64,000 nt of DNA, taken from contig CAZVQX010000002.1 in the NCBI GenBank assembly GCA_964629735.1, positions 5,493-69,492 on the forward strand, written 5' to 3'. Below, piece after piece: positions 10,253-21,817 of the stretch. Numbering within the stretch: position 1 is the stretch's first letter; each line of letters starts with the position of its first letter. Source of the stretch: an uncultured Muribaculaceae bacterium (GTDB lineage Bacteria; Bacillota_I; Bacilli_A; RF39; UBA660). The translations under genes and the position numbers were made by a program. Below the pieces are notes generated by a model. The model was not told the DNA's origin and made no database searches. It saw only the letters and a program-made list of their open reading frames with translations.

Positions 10253-12175
10253 TTACAATAATTCATTTATTAATTCAACAATATTTTCTTTTGAACAACC
10301 ATTCATTTTCATTTTATTAGCACTATCAACTGATTTATTACTTAAATCATTAAAACCTAAAACTTTTATATTATTATTATATTTATATAATAATTGTTTT
10401 AAGGCTGAAGGATAACCATGAAAAACATATATAATGTTTTTACACTCATCAAATAAATTATGTTTTTCTTTTAAAATGGATATATCATAAATATATATTA
10501 GCTTTATTTTATAATTACTTTCTTTACAAACTGATAAACACTCTTTTAATTGATATATGCCTGTTGCTACTAATATAATATCCGGATTAACATAATTTTG
10601 AAAAATTAAATATTTATTCGTGATTAACTTGCTTGCTTTTTTTTTGCTTAATTCAATTAATTCGTGTTTTGTTATAACTATTACATTAATAAAATTATAT
10701 ATTTTATTAACATTTTTTAAAGTCAATATTAGTGAATAATAATCGATTGGGAAAAATACATTACAGTATTTATTTTCATCAATTAATAGATTATTCAAAA
10801 TTTCAGGATTTTGATGAGAATAACAATTTTCTTCCCAAAGACTAGTTAATAATAAATTTAACGAATGGTAACCTTTTTTAGTTTCATATATAAATTTTTT
10901 ATATTGGCTAATTATACTTAAAACAATCGAAGCAAATCCTTCATATGATATAAAAATTCCATTATTACCACCTCTAATATGACCAATTAAGGCAGTTAAA
11001 CAAACATTTTCATTTAATAATTCAAAAATATTTTCTCTATATTTAAGTAATTCTCCTAATTTATTTGAACCTAACTCATCAGGTGAAAAAATTACAAAGT
11101 TTTTATCTAATTTAATTATTGTTTCAAAATAATCAACGCAACAACTTAAGTTATTTGAATATTCATTTTTAAAAGAATAATCCGGATATTTTTTAAATTT
11201 TATTTGATTATAAAAAAATTTATTAATTTTATTTTTCTTAGGAACATATAACTTATTGTTAACGTTTTGTTGACATATATTATACTTTTTTAACCAATCA
11301 ATTACTATTTCTTTTTTTATATTATTAGCTTTTATTTTTAATAATGGATTTTTATGTGAACATAAATTATTTTCAATATTTATATAATTATTACATAAGC
11401 CGGTCATGCCTTTTGGTGTTTTTAAAATAATAATTGAATTTTTATCATAATTCGTTTTACTCAATAATTTATTTAATATTTTTGTGAATTGTAAATGATT
11501 ATTATTAACAATAAAAACTTTATAACCTAAACTATTAAAATGTTTTTTTAAATCTTTATTACTCATTTTAGATAATAAAGATTGACTCCCCATTTTATAG
11601 CCATTTAGATTAATAATTGGCAATATTTTTCCTTTTGACTTTATTATTTGATTTAGCTGCCACGAAGATGAAATAGAACCGGTCTCAGCTTCACCATCGC
11701 CGATTATAGGAATAACCAAAACATCATTTTTAAGGGCAATTCCATACGCTATTGGTAATGAATAACCTAATTCACCACCATCATAAAAAGTATATGGATA
11801 ACTTGCATTAATTTCACTACGATAACCTGTAGATGAACCAAATTGTTCTATTAATTTATTTATCTCTTTGTAATTTAATGGATATGTTTCTGTAAATTGT
11901 GACAAATAATTATTAGCTAAATAAGCATTACCGGCATGACCAGCACCTATTATTGTTACTATATTTAAATTGTTTTTAAAAGCAACATAATTTAAACTTG
12001 AATAAATAAAATTAATATTAGGTACAGCACCCCAATGACCAACTGAATATTTTTTTAATTTAATATTATTTAAGTTTTTGCCTATACTACCGCCTTCAAC
12101 ATACATTGTTGCCAGTGATATAAAATTGGCTAAATTATAATATTTTTTTATTATTCTAATATCTCGTCGGATCAT
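10253..12175 (-). CDS. Phosphoketolase (XFP) family protein. It is a divergent, short paralog of 640 aa with a TPP-binding N-terminal domain.
   Basis: Strong match to the XFP N-terminal signatures: VGHWGAVPNINFIY (GHWGTTPG), GAGHAGNAYLA (GPGHGGPA), YDGGELGYSLPIAYG (EGGELGY), IIGDGEAETGS (GDGEAETG), ILPIINLNGYKM. It is about 185 aa shorter than canonical Xfp, and an active-site His (HEGGELGY) is replaced by Tyr. Confidence 0.65.
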   Translation of the reverse strand: MIRRDIRIIKKYYNLANFISLATMYVEGGSIGKNLNNIKLKKYSVGHWGAVPNINFIYSSLNYVAFKNNLNIVTIIGAGHAGNAYLANNYLSQFTETYPLNYKEINKLIEQFGSSTGYRSEINASYPYTFYDGGELGYSLPIAYGIALKNDVLVIPIIGDGEAETGSISSSWQLNQIIKSKGKILPIINLNGYKMGSQSLLSKMSNKDLKKHFNSLGYKVFIVNNNHLQFTKILNKLLSKTNYDKNSIIILKTPKGMTGLCNNYINIENNLCSHKNPLLKIKANNIKKEIVIDWLKKYNICQQNVNNKLYVPKKNKINKFFYNQIKFKKYPDYSFKNEYSNNLSCCVDYFETIIKLDKNFVIFSPDELGSNKLGELLKYRENIFELLNENVCLTALIGHIRGGNNGIFISYEGFASIVLSIISQYKKFIYETKKGYHSLNLLLTSLWEENCYSHQNPEILNNLLIDENKYCNVFFPIDYYSLILTLKNVNKIYNFINVIVITKHELIELSKKKASKLITNKYLIFQNYVNPDIILVATGIYQLKECLSVCKESNYKIKLIYIYDISILKEKHNLFDECKNIIYVFHGYPSALKQLLYKYNNNIKVLGFNDLSNKSVDSANKMKMNGCSKENIVELINELL

Positions 12176-13767
12176 AACATTATTGAATTATCAAAATGAG
12201 TATACCATAGCGGTCGATAGCACTCCCATGATTGTGGACGACATTTTTTATCTGAGTATATTTTTTCTATATATTTTCTTAAAATTAGATAATACTCTAG
12301 GTCAACAGCTTTTTCATTTAAGATTTTCATATCTTTTTTACTATGTATTTGATATATATTAAAAGTTGGGAAATGTTTGGTTATATCTTTAAAATCAATG
12401 ATAAAATTAATAATATCATCAATCGGATCTAAACCTAATACAAATAAATAATTAGTAGTAATTCCAATACTATTACAGTATTTAATTGCTTCTTTATAAT
12501 CAATAATTGTCACTTTTCTTTTTATTTTGTGCAAAATCTGTTCACGATTATTTATACATTCTACTGTAAAACTAATCATTAAATTATCAATTTTTGTTTT
12601 TACTTTTTTGAGATCCTCTTTATCAATTAATTGAGAGCCTATATAGTGAATTACACCATTAAATCCTAATTTTTCACTAACTGCTTTTATTAATAATAAA
12701 TGATTTATTAGTGATACAGAATTTTCAAAACAACCCGTACAAATTGTAATATATTCTAAATCATCCATACTTTCGTTATTTATTATTTTTTTGAAATAAT
12801 TTGTTAACGATTCTTCGTCTTCTAGTATAATTTCTTCATTATTTACAATAAGATTATTCGGACAAAATAAGCAACCAAAACAATTACTTCTTTGATTAGA
12901 ATTAATTGTTAAAGATTTATTATTATTTCTAAAATAACTAGATGAACAATCATCATTTTCTAATTCGTTGAGCTCACCAATTTCTAATTTATCAAAATAA
13001 ATTCTATTGCCTTCTTCTATAAAGACAGAATTAGGATTATTATACAAACCTAATTTAAACAATTTAGGATAATCATTAAATTTTAATTCAAACCTAACTC
13101 TTGTTGTATTTACACTACTAGTATTAATACCAATCATATTTAAGTAAATTAAGATTATATCATAAAGATGAACATCATATTTTTTACTAATTTTTAGTAA
13201 CTCATCATAACTATATATAATATTTTGAAAATCATATAATTGAATTGCTTTTTCCATTATCTTATTTATAAAATCTCTTTTTTTATTAGTATAAGCTTTT
13301 CTATCTAATTCATTAGATTGTACGATTTTAACTTTTATTTCTTCATATTCTTTTGCCATGCTAAAATGCGTATTTAAATAATCGCGAAAATAAATTGATT
13401 CTTTATAACGAAGACTGTTTTTTTCAACAATATGAATGTAATGAGTTCGATTATTCTCTGGCCCTTTTCTAAGTAAATACTCCCCCTTTACACCATTATC
13501 ATCGCGAAAATCATAATCTTCTAATTTTTCAAAAATGGGAATAAACTGGCGGGCATCATCTAATTTATCAACCGTAATTAACATATCAATAATGGGTTTG
13601 GCTTTTATACCAATTATTGATGTACTACCAATATGTTCAATCTCAACATCATGATCGTTTAAATATGTTTTTAGTAATTTTTTTTCTTTTAAAAATTCTT
13701 TTTCCCATATTGGATTATAATCGTCTAACCTTACTTCATTTTTAGATAAACCTATTATTTTTTTCAT
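12172..13767 (-). CDS. GrpB (UPF0157) nucleotidyltransferase-fold domain fused to an uncharacterized C-terminal domain of about 360 aa with a CxxCxxC triad
   Basis: N-terminal 170 aa: IEHIGSTSIIGIKAKPIIDMLITV...HYIHIV...YFRDYL matches the GrpB family. The C-terminal part has NCFGCLFCPNN and ICTGCFENS but no recognizable family. There are 4-nt overlaps with both neighbouring genes. Confidence 0.6.
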   Translation of the reverse strand: MKKIIGLSKNEVRLDDYNPIWEKEFLKEKKLLKTYLNDHDVEIEHIGSTSIIGIKAKPIIDMLITVDKLDDARQFIPIFEKLEDYDFRDDNGVKGEYLLRKGPENNRTHYIHIVEKNSLRYKESIYFRDYLNTHFSMAKEYEEIKVKIVQSNELDRKAYTNKKRDFINKIMEKAIQLYDFQNIIYSYDELLKISKKYDVHLYDIILIYLNMIGINTSSVNTTRVRFELKFNDYPKLFKLGLYNNPNSVFIEEGNRIYFDKLEIGELNELENDDCSSSYFRNNNKSLTINSNQRSNCFGCLFCPNNLIVNNEEIILEDEESLTNYFKKIINNESMDDLEYITICTGCFENSVSLINHLLLIKAVSEKLGFNGVIHYIGSQLIDKEDLKKVKTKIDNLMISFTVECINNREQILHKIKRKVTIIDYKEAIKYCNSIGITTNYLFVLGLDPIDDIINFIIDFKDITKHFPTFNIYQIHSKKDMKILNEKAVDLEYYLILRKYIEKIYSDKKCRPQSWECYRPLWYTHFDNSIML

Positions 13768-14582
13768 TTGTTCCTCCTCATAATTAATTTTTTTATTTCT
13801 TCTTCAGGAATATTAACTCCAAAAAAATTGTTGCTTTCATAATTGTGAAAATCACTACCACCAGTCATTATTAATTTGTGACGAATACATATTTCTCTTA
13901 ACGCTTGTAACTCTTTTTTGGTGTGATATCGATAATAAACCTCTACTCCACCTGCACCTTGATTTTTTATTTTGATAATTTCATTTTCTATATTATTATC
14001 TTTAGCTAAACCAGAAAAAAACGGATGGGCAATCACTGCTACTCCACCGGCGGCTTTTATTATATTAATAGCTTCAGTTATACTATATTTGTTAATTGGT
14101 ATATAATAATGGGCTTTTTTACCTATGTATTTATCGTAAGCCTCTACTACTTGTGATACATAACCGTTAGCTATCATGGTTTTAACAATACTTTTTTTAT
14201 CAACAATTCCATCATGACTATTATTTTTTACTTCGTCTAAACTAATAAAAATACCATTATTATTTAATAATTCAATAACTTTATTACATATATCTATATT
14301 ACTCTCACGTAATTTTAACATTTTACCCTCAATTTTATCAATGTCTTTTATATTATAACCTAAAATATGTAATTTCCGATAATCGGTCGTTATTTCAATT
14401 GCTGGTATAATGTTTAATTTTAATTCTTCGGCCAATTTTTGATATTGATTATAGCCAATAATAGTATCATGATCAGTTATTGCTAGATTAATTATACCTA
14501 ATTGCTGACAAGTTGTTATAATTGTTTCTGGCTCTAAATCGCCATCCGAATAGGTACTGTGAATGTGAAAGTCTACTTTCAT
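13764..14582 (-). CDS. PHP-domain phosphoesterase (TrpH/YciV RNase AM-like)
   Basis: MKVDFHIHSTYSDGDLEPETII...AITDHDTIIGY...LHILGYN...IAHPF. Strong AGGAGG SD 8 nt upstream. First gene of the cluster. Confidence 0.75.
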   Translation of the reverse strand: MKVDFHIHSTYSDGDLEPETIITTCQQLGIINLAITDHDTIIGYNQYQKLAEELKLNIIPAIEITTDYRKLHILGYNIKDIDKIEGKMLKLRESNIDICNKVIELLNNNGIFISLDEVKNNSHDGIVDKKSIVKTMIANGYVSQVVEAYDKYIGKKAHYYIPINKYSITEAINIIKAAGGVAVIAHPFFSGLAKDNNIENEIIKIKNQGAGGVEVYYRYHTKKELQALREICIRHKLIMTGGSDFHNYESNNFFGVNIPEEEIKKLIMRRNK

Positions 14583-14703
14583 ATAATCACCTCCTAAAAG
14601 TACGTATAATAGCCTAGAAAATTATATTACTAGTTTTAAATAAATATTACCTTATTAATTATTTTATTAATTTTTTTGATTATACTATTTAATAGGTGAT
14701 GGT

Positions 14704-15282
14704 ATGAATCTTGATAAATTAAAAAAAGAATTAGAACAATGTCGCTTATGCGAAGAAAAATTTGGGTTTCGACCTAATCCAGTTTATTTTGGTAATCAAA
14801 ATGTAAAAATTATGCATATATCTCAAGCCCCTTCTAAAAATGTTCACTTAACTAAAAAATCATTTAATGATATTAGTGGTCAAAAATTAAAATATGAATG
14901 GTATCAAATAACAGATGAAGATTTTTATAATCCTAATAATTTTTATATTACTTCAGTCGGGCACTGTTATCCAGGTAAAAATAGAAAAGGCCGTGATAAT
15001 AAACCTCCTAAAATATGTAGAGATATATGGTTAAAAAAAGAAATTGAATTAGTTAACTGCCAATTATATGTAATAGTTGGTAAAGAAGCAGCTGATTTTT
15101 TATTCCCTAAAAGCAACTTTAAAGAACTAGTTTTTAATAATAATATATTTAATAATAAAATAGCATTAGTTCTTCCCCATCCTTCACCTGTTAATATTAA
15201 ATGGTTTTTGGATAATCCTGAATTTGAAAAAACAAGAATAATTGAGATAAGAGCAATAATAAAAGAAGTATTACAACTATAA
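14704..15282 (+). CDS. Uracil-DNA glycosylase superfamily protein (family 4/5-like, with an atypical motif A)
   Basis: N-terminal CRLC. SQAPS sits at the position of GE(A/G)PG motif A. LPHPSPVN matches motif B (HPSP.N). AGGTGATGG SD. Confidence 0.45.
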   Translation: MNLDKLKKELEQCRLCEEKFGFRPNPVYFGNQNVKIMHISQAPSKNVHLTKKSFNDISGQKLKYEWYQITDEDFYNPNNFYITSVGHCYPGKNRKGRDNKPPKICRDIWLKKEIELVNCQLYVIVGKEAADFLFPKSNFKELVFNNNIFNNKIALVLPHPSPVNIKWFLDNPEFEKTRIIEIRAIIKEVLQL

Positions 15283-18906: not shown

Positions 18907-19752
18907 TCAATATTTATCATTTAAATCTAAGTTATAAGTATTAATAGCAATACCTAAAACAAAAACATAAGATAAAATATACGCCCAGATCATAAGGACC
19001 ATAATCGATGATAAACTACCATAAAAAATATCATAATTAGCTATATTACTGGCATAATATGAATAGATTGAAGTTGCTACTAACCAAGAAAAAGTAGTGA
19101 AAACAGCACCTTTTCTAGTATTTTTACTTGTAACACTAATATCAGGAGCGATTGCGTATATAAAATTAATTGTAAAGAAAATAATAACAAAGCTAATTGG
19201 CCATTTTAATAATACAAATATTGAATACAATAGTTTTACTGTTTCTTTATTACTAATAAAGCTTAATAATAATTTTATTAAAACATTACCAAATGCTAAG
19301 ACAATTAATATAAACAAAAATAAAAATACTAATACAAATGATAAAATAAAAGCTTTTATTCTTCGTTTAATTTTAGATGATTCATCAATTTGATATAGTG
19401 TATTTGAAGCAATAATAACTGAATATAAGCCATTAGAAGCAATTACAAATCCTATTATTATAAATAGGCCAACATTAAAGTTAAAACCTTTACCCGATAT
19501 AATAGGTACTAATATCTTACTTACTTCTCTAGGAAATGTTCGATTCATAAAATTAATAAATGAAGCAATTGATATATTAAAAAAAGATGCAAAAAACACA
19601 AACAATGTAATTATGGGAACAATTGATAATACAAGTGAAAAGGCCAGATTACCTGGTAATATTTCCATTTCTGGTTTTTGAAATACGGTCGATAATTTTT
19701 GGCCTTCTTTAGTAGTAAAAATTTTTTTATTAGTCAATTTTTTGATCTTCAC
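18907..19752 (-). CDS. YihY/BrkB (ribonuclease BN-like) family membrane protein
   Basis: 281 aa, six predicted TM helices, typical YihY layout. Overlaps the GGDEF gene 3' end by 23 nt. Confidence 0.65.
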   Translation of the reverse strand: MKIKKLTNKKIFTTKEGQKLSTVFQKPEMEILPGNLAFSLVLSIVPIITLFVFFASFFNISIASFINFMNRTFPREVSKILVPIISGKGFNFNVGLFIIIGFVIASNGLYSVIIASNTLYQIDESSKIKRRIKAFILSFVLVFLFLFILIVLAFGNVLIKLLLSFISNKETVKLLYSIFVLLKWPISFVIIFFTINFIYAIAPDISVTSKNTRKGAVFTTFSWLVATSIYSYYASNIANYDIFYGSLSSIMVLMIWAYILSYVFVLGIAINTYNLDLNDKY

Positions 19753-21817
19753 TTTCTTTATTATCGCGCATATCTAATGTTGCTTCAATAATAGCATCAT
19801 CTACTGTTTTTATAGCGTCTACTATCATACTATAACCAATTGCAGCACCAAACCCGTGCGCTAATGACTTAAACTCTTTATTTAATTTACGAATATAAGA
19901 AACAACTTCTTTTTCTTCATGACCAACTAAATAAACAAGAAATTCATTACCATCAGTTCTTATAATATCACTGTTTTCAGTTTGATTTTTTATTAATATA
20001 TTAGCAGCATCTTTAATAACCATATCGCCTTCGCTATGACCATAGTTATCATTAATATATGCAATATTATTTAAGTCAATAATAACAATAGTTTGCGGAT
20101 ATACTTCACTCTCATCCCATATTTCTATATTATCATTTAAATAATTTCGATTTTTCAAAGATGTTAACAGATCAATATATTTTAATTTTTCTTCTTTTGA
20201 TAAAACGTTTTTGACTTTTTTCTTATCTTTACGAACAGATGTAAATAAAGCTGTAGTTGCACCAATAATTATAATTAATGATGTAAGAACAACTAAACTT
20301 TTAATTATAATTGGTTTTTTATCAATGTTAAATAGATTATAATACGCATCGTTTTCAATGCTTTTATTATTAACAAATGATAAATAAAAGTTAAAGAAAT
20401 CATTAAAGACTTTATTATCTTTTATATCCCTTGCTACAAAATTATAATTAGTTTTTAATTGTTCTTCATAATTAACTTGATAGTTTTTTAATTGATTATT
20501 TAAAAAATATTTATATACATTAGAATCAATAACAATAATTGAATCTTTGTTTATATTTTTTATTAATTCTAAAACATTATTAAATGATTTAACCTTTAAT
20601 TTTTGTTCCAACAAATAATTATTAATAACATCACCTTTTAATGTTAAAACTTCTACATTTTGTAATGAATTAAGTGAATTAATAATTAAATTGTTTTTAA
20701 TATGACTAACAACTACAAATGAGTTTGAATAAACTGGAATAGTGTTATAAATATCCATATCATATTCATTGATGCTAAGATTATTCATCATTAAATCTAG
20801 CTTATTACTATTAAAATCTTGTAACATCATTTTAATTGATTTATAACTCTTATAATTTATTTCAATATTAGCCATTTTAGAAAATGCTTTTAAAAATTCA
20901 CTGTTATAACCCTTTAATTTATTATTAATTAAAGTATCATATGGTGCATTTTCAACAAATCCATATGTATAACGTTTACTTCTAAAATCAACGCGTGATT
21001 TTTCCATAGTTTTGTTATAAGTAAAATAACTATTAGCTAAATGATTATTGTATTTACTTTCAAACTTTTCTTGTGACCATTTATCATAATATTTTTTCAA
21101 AATATTATTTAATTTATCTGTCTTTCCTAATGTTAAAACAATATACTTGTTCATTTCTGTTATGTTATAAGCAATATTTAATTTTGTTTCAATAATTTTT
21201 TCTAAATACATTGTTTTGGGTACAATTATAGCATTAATTGGATTAACTGTTTGATTAGTATTATCTTCACTTTCTATTTGAGCAGGCATCATATCATTAA
21301 ACATCTTATCTATATCATCATAAGTTTTAAAAACGTTATTAAATGAACCTTTTAAATAAGTATTAACAGTATCTACTTCTTTACTTAAAACCCCAATGGT
21401 TAATCCTTTTATTTCTTTTAAATCTTGAAATTTTTGTTTATTCCTAGTAACAATAACATATTCATCTTTATATAATAAAATATCGTTTTTAGTCAATTGA
21501 TCAACAACATTAAAAGAATATTCTGGAATATCTTTTTCATTATATTGAAAGGATACTTTATTGAGAACCAAACCTGTTGTATTTTCTAAACTTTTTAAAA
21601 AATCAAAGAAAACACCATTACCACCATAATTAAATATTGGAACATCGTTAATTAACCCAATATCAATTACACTATTTTTATTTTTATCAATCCATTGTTT
21701 TTCTATTAAGTTAAGCGTTGTTTTTTTGTCTTCTTTATTATATATAATATATATACTTCCGGCTAATAAAACTAATATTATAGCACTGATAATAATCATT
21801 ATTTTTTTATTTTTCAT
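19730..21817 (-). CDS. Sensor protein with an extracytoplasmic tandem solute-binding-like region flanked by two TM helices and a cytoplasmic GGDEF domain in which GGDEF is replaced by DGNEF
   Basis: GGDEF-domain signatures IIDLNNIAYINDNYGHSEGDMV and IIRTDGNEFLVYL. TM helices at residues about 5-25 and about 508-530. The region between them resembles SBP_bac_3-type binding domains. Confidence 0.7.
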   Translation of the reverse strand: MKNKKIMIIISAIILVLLAGSIYIIYNKEDKKTTLNLIEKQWIDKNKNSVIDIGLINDVPIFNYGGNGVFFDFLKSLENTTGLVLNKVSFQYNEKDIPEYSFNVVDQLTKNDILLYKDEYVIVTRNKQKFQDLKEIKGLTIGVLSKEVDTVNTYLKGSFNNVFKTYDDIDKMFNDMMPAQIESEDNTNQTVNPINAIIVPKTMYLEKIIETKLNIAYNITEMNKYIVLTLGKTDKLNNILKKYYDKWSQEKFESKYNNHLANSYFTYNKTMEKSRVDFRSKRYTYGFVENAPYDTLINNKLKGYNSEFLKAFSKMANIEINYKSYKSIKMMLQDFNSNKLDLMMNNLSINEYDMDIYNTIPVYSNSFVVVSHIKNNLIINSLNSLQNVEVLTLKGDVINNYLLEQKLKVKSFNNVLELIKNINKDSIIVIDSNVYKYFLNNQLKNYQVNYEEQLKTNYNFVARDIKDNKVFNDFFNFYLSFVNNKSIENDAYYNLFNIDKKPIIIKSLVVLTSLIIIIGATTALFTSVRKDKKKVKNVLSKEEKLKYIDLLTSLKNRNYLNDNIEIWDESEVYPQTIVIIDLNNIAYINDNYGHSEGDMVIKDAANILIKNQTENSDIIRTDGNEFLVYLVGHEEKEVVSYIRKLNKEFKSLAHGFGAAIGYSMIVDAIKTVDDAIIEATLDMRDNKESEDQKID

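Follow-up and report, generated by a model that had tools for sequence, protein, structure and literature searches.

A compact phosphoketolase-like protein of a Glu142/Lys321 clade and its radical-SAM-like operon partner

Phosphoketolases (PKs) are treated as a functionally uniform family that converts fructose 6-phosphate (F6P) or xylulose 5-phosphate (X5P) to acetyl phosphate (acetyl-P), and they are heavily used in metabolic engineering. The locus considered here raises the question of what a PK-like gene encodes when it is short, very AT-rich and altered in its active site. It lies in a 64-kb stretch of contig CAZVQX010000002.1 from an uncultured bacterium (hereafter the window, that is, the whole stretch analysed) and consists of an open reading frame (ORF) of 640 amino acids (aa) resembling the phosphoketolase Xfp. 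A first-pass annotation had described this ORF as a truncated, active-site-altered Xfp paralog that was either recruited for a different thiamine pyrophosphate chemistry or decaying. We found that the gene is intact, is under purifying selection and belongs to a monophyletic clade of the PK family with glutamate and lysine at positions 142 and 321 of Xfp (Glu142/Lys321 or Glu/Lys clade). The ORF probably encodes a functional, compact member of this clade, an enzyme that would use thiamine diphosphate (ThDP) and phosphate, act on a non-canonical substrate and belong to a pathway not yet characterised.

The reading frame, its active site and its fold

The three Pfam domains of the family occur in order in the 640-aa protein, namely XFP_N (E 2e-59), XFP (4e-26) and XFP_C (3e-7). 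With 201.6, 92.4 and 30.5 bits they exceed the respective Pfam gathering scores of 23.7, 22 and 23.4, which places the protein in the PK family at the level of the fold. None of the NCBIfam phosphoketolase cutoffs is reached: the best model gives 365.5 bits against 777, and the remaining models give 191-293 bits against 962-1518. The N-terminal Xfp motifs that the first-pass annotation had recognised in the intact frame were all located (GHWG at aa 46-49, GAGHAG at 77-82, TFYDGGELGY at 129-138 and GDGEAETG at 159-166). The elements for binding and activation of ThDP, that is, GDGEAETG, Asn191 and Glu389, are invariant in the homologs.

Residue numbers of Xfp refer to the Bifidobacterium longum enzyme and were counted along the alignment with 3AI7, in which His64 lies in GHWG, His97 in GPGHGG, His142 in GGIPSHFAPE and His152 in IHEGGELGY. 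The published active-site set consists of His64, His97, His142, Gly155, His320, Gln321, Glu437, Ser440, Glu479, Tyr501, Gln546, His548, Asn549 and His553 (PMC10547157). His97 is the proton donor of the dehydration, which is assisted by His142 and Gly155, and the site for inorganic phosphate (Pi) is formed by His64, Tyr501 and Asn549 (PMC6435721). Mutant structures of the B. breve PK are available in the PDB for H64A, H142A, H320A and H553A.

Four of the five catalytic histidines (64, 97, 142, 320 and 553) are present in the PK-like protein, one short of the full set of a bona fide Xfp. The residues retained are His47 (=64), His80 (=97), His274 (=320), Glu367 and Ser370 (=437 and 440), Glu389 (=479), Tyr411 (=501), Asn450 (=549), His454 (=553) and Lys503 (=605). 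The position of the missing His142 is occupied by Glu121. The Pi site is complete, and His47, Tyr411 and Asn450 are each kept in 120 of 120 homologs. The substrate side of the pocket has been remodelled: Gln321 is replaced by Lys275, and the Xfp loop W544-RQDH-N549 is shortened to W-EE-N, the RQDH part being reduced to E(E) with the loss of Gln546 and His548. The equivalents of Glu437 and Ser440 on this side are kept.

The substitution of Tyr for His in the IHEGGELGY segment, to which the first-pass annotation had drawn attention, is real (Tyr131), but the residue concerned is His152 and not a catalytic histidine. His152 is found neither in the published active-site sets nor among the B. breve mutants in the PDB, and the position varies in canonical PKs. 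Just 20 of 36 canonical representatives have His here, and Leu, Asn, Cys or Ser occur in many canonical PKs, including Leu in the native Saccharibacteria PK and Asn in the canonical enzyme encoded at locus L016 (see below). Tyr131 was therefore ruled out as the key catalytic change. The alignment with Xfp does reveal a divergent pocket, but the divergence lies in His142 to Glu121, Gln321 to Lys275 and the shortened 544-549 loop, none of which had been mentioned. The Saccharibacteria structure 9CD3 was considered as a natural precedent for the loss of His142 and was rejected, since the Ser found there is the engineered substitution H132S and only the Leu at 152 is native. Chain A of 9CD3 carries the engineered substitutions H58W and H132S, and residue numbers in the deposited sequence are shifted by 12 against those of the paper.

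The PK-like protein is about 160 aa shorter than Xfp. Using phmmer, aa 6-611 were aligned without break to residues 19-727 of 9CD3, the best PDB match (E 5e-64); 112 residues are absent in about 12 internal gaps of 4-22 aa, and the N- and C-termini are shorter as well. A mis-called stop or a truncation is ruled out by this alignment, as the deletions correspond to internal loops. An AlphaFold2 (AF2) model built on 30 homologs has a pLDDT of 86.8 and a pTM of 0.90. In Foldseek it matched all solved phosphoketolases with TM scores of 0.88-0.89 over the query (E ~1e-43 to 1e-38, best 2e-43), and transketolases followed as a second tier (E ~1e-24). The protein has a complete, if compact, three-domain PK fold. 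The three domains match PK structures end to end, and the earlier description of the ORF as truncated has to be given up in favour of scattered loop deletions and shorter termini.

The GC content of the window is about 26% throughout. With 21.6% GC the PK-like ORF is the poorest of the 32 large ORFs of the window (median 26.9%), and its share of Asn, Ile and Lys (35.6%) is the highest among them. The first-pass annotation was hence correct about the extreme AT-richness but not about long runs of Asn and Ile, the longest of which comprises 4 residues. Because three further ORFs are similarly poor in GC (21.8-22.6%) and no such run exceeds four residues, the composition reflects the bias of the genome acting on a non-housekeeping gene and not decay.

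A separate clade within the phosphoketolase family

In a search of 5.8 billion proteins the full-length homologs numbered over 100; they share 35-41% identity and are mostly 610-730 aa long. They stem from gut metagenomes and metagenome-assembled genomes (MAGs) and are labelled only as "hypothetical protein" or "phosphoketolase family protein". In 120 close homologs His142 is replaced by Glu in 119, His152 by Tyr in 118, Glu153 by Asp in 117 and Gln321 by Lys in all 120 cases; His64, His97, His320, Glu437, Ser440, Glu479, Tyr501, Asn549, His553 and Lys605 are each unchanged throughout. Across 30 homologs at about 40% identity 62 columns are invariant, and two independent sequencing runs yielded the PK-like protein in identical form.

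When 1.84 billion representative proteins were searched exhaustively with a profile, 851 matches reached E<=1e-30. Residue pairs were counted in the best 150 of these 851 matches (50%-identity representatives) where the core was intact. At positions 142/321 the pair Glu/Lys was found 76 times, His/Gln or His/Gly 35 times, His/Lys once and Glu/Gln never. Position 219 discriminates too: Glu/Lys proteins have Met there, canonical PKs Ile. In a neighbour-joining tree calculated without columns 142, 321 and 219, one branch parts all 70 full-length Glu/Lys sequences from all 27 canonical ones. As a single branch separates the groups even without the signature columns, the tree indicates that the Glu/Lys switch arose once and has been maintained since.

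Among the Glu/Lys proteins the shortest has 611 and the longest 839 aa; their median is 713 aa, that of canonical PKs 791 aa. Being short is a matter of degree and does not define the clade. Tyr152, Asp153 and Arg140 mark only an inner subclade to which the window protein belongs. Since Glu142/Lys321 is also found in genomes of 50-69% GC and in proteins of up to 839 aa, the Glu/Lys state is an effect neither of AT drift nor of size. Our literature search found no description of this clade, nor of a PK combined with a radical S-adenosylmethionine (SAM) enzyme, GrpB, PHP or a biosynthetic gene cluster (BGC). Judged by their sequences, the Glu/Lys proteins form a distinct, previously uncharacterised large sister clade within the PK family.

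Radical-SAM-like partner and gene context

A scan of 185,579 species genomes gave 34 loci, nearly all of them from gut Bacillota MAGs, together with Sellimonas intestinalis. In each of the 32 genome loci with flanking sequence a gene for a radical-SAM-like protein is found no more than 3 kb from the PK-like gene, and the same holds for nine of nine additional loci, some of them at 38-69% GC. Combined, 41 of 41 informative loci (27-69% GC) pair a Glu/Lys PK with this gene, and HAD, PHP and GrpB genes are the usual companions. In five distant Glu/Lys members (38-69% GC) the radical-SAM-like protein is 29-33% identical to that of the window (E 1e-47 to 1e-62), and the distant loci place it beside a HAD phosphatase, an enolase-superfamily (MR_MLE) protein and a class-I methyltransferase. 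Loci L039-L043 have in common MR_MLE, the class-I methyltransferase and two function-unassigned proteins of ~145 and ~220-240 aa, sometimes with PhyH dioxygenase, creatininase-family or ATP-grasp genes; this set differs from that of the Bacillota.

In the window the radical-SAM-like domain is fused to GrpB, a member of a function-uncharacterised family with a nucleotidyltransferase fold. The domain has six invariant Cys, arranged in D-x-C, C-x2-C-x2-C and C-T-G-C. Pfam Radical_SAM scores 24.3 bits against a cutoff of 29.5 and the spacing is CX2CX2C instead of CX3CX2C, so that membership in the family is not supported at the sequence level; the stand-alone homologs have no Pfam or NCBIfam match. 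The AF2 model of the domain (pLDDT 88) does support it at the level of the fold. Its top 31 Foldseek matches are all radical SAM enzymes (E 1e-6 to 9e-4), including lipoyl synthase, SuiB, biotin synthase, SkfB, MqnE, a viperin-like enzyme and HydE. Judging by these matches, the partner is a radical-SAM-fold Fe-S protein, divergent and with a non-canonical Cys spacing, that may hold a second cluster. About 32 clusters of the family were recovered in a word-based search, and its homologs extend to genomes with as much as 69% GC.

The PHP, GrpB::radical-SAM-like and PK-like genes overlap successively by 4 bp, the stop of the second overlapping the start of the third, and an AGGAGG ribosome-binding site (consensus match only) precedes the PHP ATG at 14582. 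On account of these overlaps and of the promoter-like and terminator-like sites (Table 1) the PHP, GrpB::radical-SAM-like, PK-like and HD genes constitute a four-gene minimal operon. The best NCBIfam match of the PHP protein is 3',5'-nucleoside bisphosphate phosphatase, below the cutoff of that model. The HD phosphohydrolase fills the slot of a HAD-IA phosphatase in the relatives L013, L017, L025, L035, L044 and L045, and none of the other loci compared yielded an HD homolog; this looks like a non-orthologous replacement of the phosphatase step. Genes for HAD, long-type PHP, c8 and LysR are absent from the window. No riboswitch or other RNA signal was found upstream of the operon in the window, L005, L013 or L017.

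Table 1. Positions of the operon genes, domains, active-site residues and signals in the window
Feature	Position	Strand	Remarks
PK-like ORF, 640 aa, Glu142/Lys321 clade of the PK family	10253..12175	minus	domain, homolog, AF2 and Foldseek evidence
XFP_N domain, aa 6-307	11255..12160	minus	GHWG (His47 = His64), GAGHAG (His80 = His97), GDGEAETG, Asn191 (ThDP/Mg motif)
XFP middle (Pyr) domain, aa 349-488	10712..11131	minus	Glu367/Ser370 (= Glu437/Ser440), Glu389 (= Glu479, cofactor activation), Tyr411 (= Tyr501)
XFP_C domain, aa 528-610	10346..10594	minus	weak match, compacted
Glu121, position of catalytic His142	11813..11815	minus	Glu in 119/120 close homologs and 76/76 clade representatives
Tyr131, position of His152	11783..11785	minus	marks inner subclade only; varies in canonical PKs
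Lys275, position of Gln321, beside His274 (= His320)	11351..11353	minus	Lys in 120/120 homologs; coupled to Glu142
WEENCYSHQNP loop	10805..10837	minus	Asn450 (= Asn549) and His454 (= His553) retained
GrpB (aa 12-173) fused to radical-SAM-fold Fe-S domain (aa 186-531)	12172..13767	minus	
CFGCLFC, invariant CX2CX2C motif of the radical-SAM-like domain	12862..12882	minus	
DDC, further invariant Cys	12940-12954	minus	
CTGC, further invariant Cys	12727-12741	minus	
PHP-domain phosphoesterase, 272 aa	13764..14582	minus	short type (TrpH/YciV-like), first operon gene
HD-domain phosphohydrolase, 220 aa	9559..10221	minus	31 bp downstream of PK-like gene
Promoter-like site TTCATA-18-TATAAT upstream of PHP gene	14679..14708	minus	consensus match only
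Terminator-like hairpin and T-run just after HD gene	9532..9549	minus	consensus match only

An anti-phage defence system was considered for the neighbouring UvrD, GGDEF and PHP genes and rejected, as no PADLOC model matched the PK-like, GrpB::radical-SAM-like, PHP, HD, HAD, c8 or GGDEF proteins; the flanking helicase alone matches GajB-like models. Just downstream of the operon the plus strand carries tRNA-Cys(GCA) and tRNA-Gly(GCC) (9332-9486), and the listed ORF of 67 aa at 9284-9487 (minus) is merely their antisense strand. Further genes on the minus strand encode a 764-aa protein with a LytR_cpsA_psr (LCP) and a C-terminal PASTA domain (6907-9201) and, about 5 kb from the operon, an SBP_bac_3-GGDEF protein (19730-21817).

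PHP genes are present in 28 and GrpB in 25 of the species-genome loci. The commonest layout is LysR, radical-SAM-like, PK-like, PHP (~365 aa), PHP (~276 aa), GrpB and HAD-IA phosphatase. The nearest architectural relatives of the window have the order GrpB, PHP, PHP, unknown, GrpB::radical-SAM-like, PK-like and HAD, and the window is a minimal version of this cassette. The partners are tied to one another by gene fusions, GrpB::radical-SAM-like in at least 10 clusters and PK-like::PHP in P0120, a metagenomic protein of 1019 aa in which the PK-like part is joined to a long-type PHP phosphoesterase. In L002, L004, L012, L015, L019 and L021 a stand-alone GGDEF protein (~221 aa, without sensor domain) is encoded directly upstream of the radical-SAM-like gene; together with the SBP_bac_3-GGDEF protein of the window it may point to a connection with nucleotide signalling.

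Clostridial loci add a macrolide-type glycosyltransferase, a ~155-aa function-unassigned protein, an acyl carrier protein (ACP), ABC exporters and tailoring genes. In the clusters L035 and L036 the ACP gene immediately precedes the PK-like gene, and L013 and L017 contain ACPs as well; neither the window nor the Bacilli-type cassettes have one. These Clostridial versions look like BGCs, and glycosyltransferase, methyltransferase, ABC exporter, BtrH_N and SARP-type regulator genes are among the BGC-like features of the clusters. The extended cluster of Sellimonas intestinalis (L013) includes an ACP::FkbH fusion (12365-13570). That of Clostridium beijerinckii (L035, 17432-22199) includes a PP-loop ATPase, a carbamoyltransferase::PHP fusion and a deoxynucleoside kinase, and the transposases by which it is flanked suggest a mobile biosynthetic cluster.

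Locus L016 carries both forms of the enzyme on one contig: a canonical PK of 775 aa (2108-4435; XFP_N 546 bits, His142/Gln321, Asn at 152) and, about 5 kb away, a Glu/Lys form of 652 aa (9237-11195). Canonical and Glu/Lys PKs can therefore coexist as paralogs. The term paralog used in the first-pass annotation is borne out directly in this locus only; in the window no canonical xfp exists elsewhere within the 64 kb.

Proposed chemistry, alternatives and known systems

The changes in the pocket sit on the leaving-group side of C1 (His142) and on the substrate side (Gln321, Gln546 and His548). From this clustering the donor substrate or the leaving group most likely differs from that of F6P and X5P. 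As cofactor activation, the Pi site and the proton donor His97 are kept, we infer that the most economical chemistry would still be one in which an acyl-ThDP is formed and phosphate captures it. The PK-like enzyme would generate a ThDP-bound carbanion or enamine from a keto substrate that is neither F6P nor X5P and that may be produced by, or passed to, the radical-SAM-like partner. This substrate may bear an anionic or otherwise different leaving group at the carbon beside the carbonyl, which the Glu/Lys pair would handle, and the acyl-ThDP would be resolved with phosphate. A phosphatase step would come next. The constant presence of phosphoesterases (HAD or HD, PHP) and of a nucleotidyltransferase-fold protein suggests phosphorylated or nucleotide-linked intermediates, and the pathway would make or degrade a phosphorylated small molecule derived from a sugar or nucleotide, outside central pentose and hexose fermentation.

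We advance a further proposal more tentatively, the balance tipping slightly against it: the Glu142/Lys321 PK and the CX2CX2C radical-SAM-fold protein may form a two-enzyme module with a chemistry undescribed for the PK family, as the core of a small-molecule pathway. Such a module could, for example, generate a radical on or rearrange a keto-sugar or nucleotide intermediate, after which ThDP-dependent C-C cleavage would eliminate a leaving group other than water and the product would be captured as an acyl-phosphate. The pathway would be embedded in full BGCs in Clostridia and high-GC lineages and be reduced to four genes in the organism of the window.

Several observations weigh against these proposals. 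Conservation of the Pi site is no proof of phosphorolysis, since His64 is conserved in transketolases too. The CX2CX2C spacing is non-canonical, so that SAM cleavage by the partner is putative. The coupling of Glu and Lys represents one ancestral split and not independent covariation. Relatives have HAD, long-type PHP and c8 genes that the window lacks. The accessory genes vary by lineage (PHP and GrpB in Bacillota, ACP and glycosyltransferase in Clostridia, MR_MLE and methyltransferase elsewhere), and the end products may therefore differ between lineages.

We considered three alternatives to a phosphorolytic enzyme with a non-canonical substrate. The main one, although unlikely, is a non-phosphorolytic ThDP enzyme: without His142 the dehydration would be blocked, and the dihydroxyethyl-ThDP unit would either go to an acceptor in the manner of transketolase or undergo oxidation with the help of the Fe-S partner, a thiol or ACP then receiving it as a glycolyl or acetyl group for use in natural-product assembly. 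Transketolase-type enzymes give C2 units to ACPs in the biosynthesis of quinocarcin and naphthyridinomycin. The ACPs in L013 and L017 and immediately upstream of the PK-like gene in L035 and L036, the BGC-like setting of these genes and the assignment of His142 to the dehydration step (PMC6435721) are consistent with such a C2 transfer. However, neither the three Pi-site residues nor His97, which donates the proton for dehydration, varies, the window and the Bacilli-type cassettes lack an ACP, and the partner has a radical-SAM fold instead of a ferredoxin or PFOR-type electron-transfer domain.

An ordinary X5P/F6P phosphoketolase, which was compacted and has drifted through AT-biased genome reduction and serves central carbon metabolism, is more improbable still. 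In its favour, the protein has all three XFP domains and most catalytic residues, the genome is AT-rich (26% GC), and PK chemistry survives loss of the His142 equivalent: in the engineered Csac PK H132S (PDB 9CD3/9CD4), with Ser at this position, acetyl-ThDP and acetyl-P are still formed and the substrate preference is altered. Yet Glu142/Lys321 is not confined to AT-rich genomes or short proteins, the score of 365 bits is far from the 777-bit NCBIfam cutoff, and Gln321, Gln546 and His548 on the substrate side are lost. In addition, the gene is strictly linked to radical-SAM-like, phosphoesterase and BGC-type genes and not to pentose or glycolytic genes, and a canonical PK coexists with the Glu/Lys form in L016.

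A decaying or non-functional remnant that keeps an open frame, one of the two readings of the first-pass annotation, to which the low GC, the high share of Asn, Ile and Lys and the weak XFP_C score could point, is effectively refuted by the 62 invariant columns, the conservation of the substituted residues themselves, the identical protein from two sequencing runs, the confident AF2 model, the translationally coupled operon with its 4-bp overlaps and a gene context conserved across lineages. The other suggestion of that annotation, recruitment for a different chemistry, is upheld in spirit by Glu142/Lys321, the remodelled loop and the obligatory radical-SAM-like neighbour, but not by Tyr152 or by truncation.

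These results indicate that much of what is annotated as "phosphoketolase family protein" belongs to a separate clade with its own first-shell residue pair and an obligatory radical-SAM-like partner; this clade accounts for at least 76 clusters among the best 150 representatives, about twice the canonical number. This flags a systematic over-annotation, and metabolic models of gut metagenomes in which a PK pathway is inferred from Glu/Lys genes would be wrong. For ThDP enzymologists the clade offers a natural replacement of His142 alongside the engineered H132S. The pairing of a variant PK with a radical-SAM-like protein points to an uncharacterised metabolic pathway in gut bacteria and beyond. 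With the compact four-gene operon and its versions in the cultured Sellimonas intestinalis and Clostridium beijerinckii, this pathway and the non-canonical radical-SAM family are directly testable.

Among known systems the PK-like protein is first to be compared with Xfp (B. longum 3AI7, B. breve 3AHC, Lactococcus lactis 6GUA and the cyanobacterial 8IO8). The three-domain fold is common to both (TM 0.88-0.89), as are the ThDP motif, Glu479, His64, His97, His320, His553, Tyr501, Asn549 and Lys605. At 21-31% identity the window form differs in having Glu for His142, Lys for Gln321 and Met for Ile219 and in lacking Gln546 and His548; it is the shorter protein, stays below all NCBIfam PK cutoffs and has radical-SAM-like and phosphoesterase genes and not sugar metabolism as neighbours. 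The engineered PK variant M4 of Candidatus Saccharibacteria (9CD3/9CD4) is the best PDB match by sequence, has a native Leu at 152 and still forms acetyl-ThDP and acetyl-P although H132S removes the His142 equivalent. Unlike the window protein it has the canonical length (~790 aa), Gln321 and the full RQDH loop, and its Ser at 142 was made in the laboratory. It is not known to have a radical SAM partner.

Transketolases share the superfamily and the domain order with the PK-like protein, and both Foldseek (second tier, as above) and weak NCBIfam matches reflect this relation. The identity amounts to only 13-16%, however, and the window protein possesses PK motifs (EGGELGY-type, SHQNP) and the three XFP Pfam domains. 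The radical-SAM-like partner resembles LipA/LIAS, BioB, HydE and SuiB in its partial TIM-barrel fold (Foldseek E 1e-6 to 1e-3) and in a motif ending in C-x-F-C, and its extra invariant Cys could hold a second cluster. It differs from these enzymes, to which it is 10-17% identical, by the CX2CX2C motif and by a ~100-aa N-terminal domain of its own.

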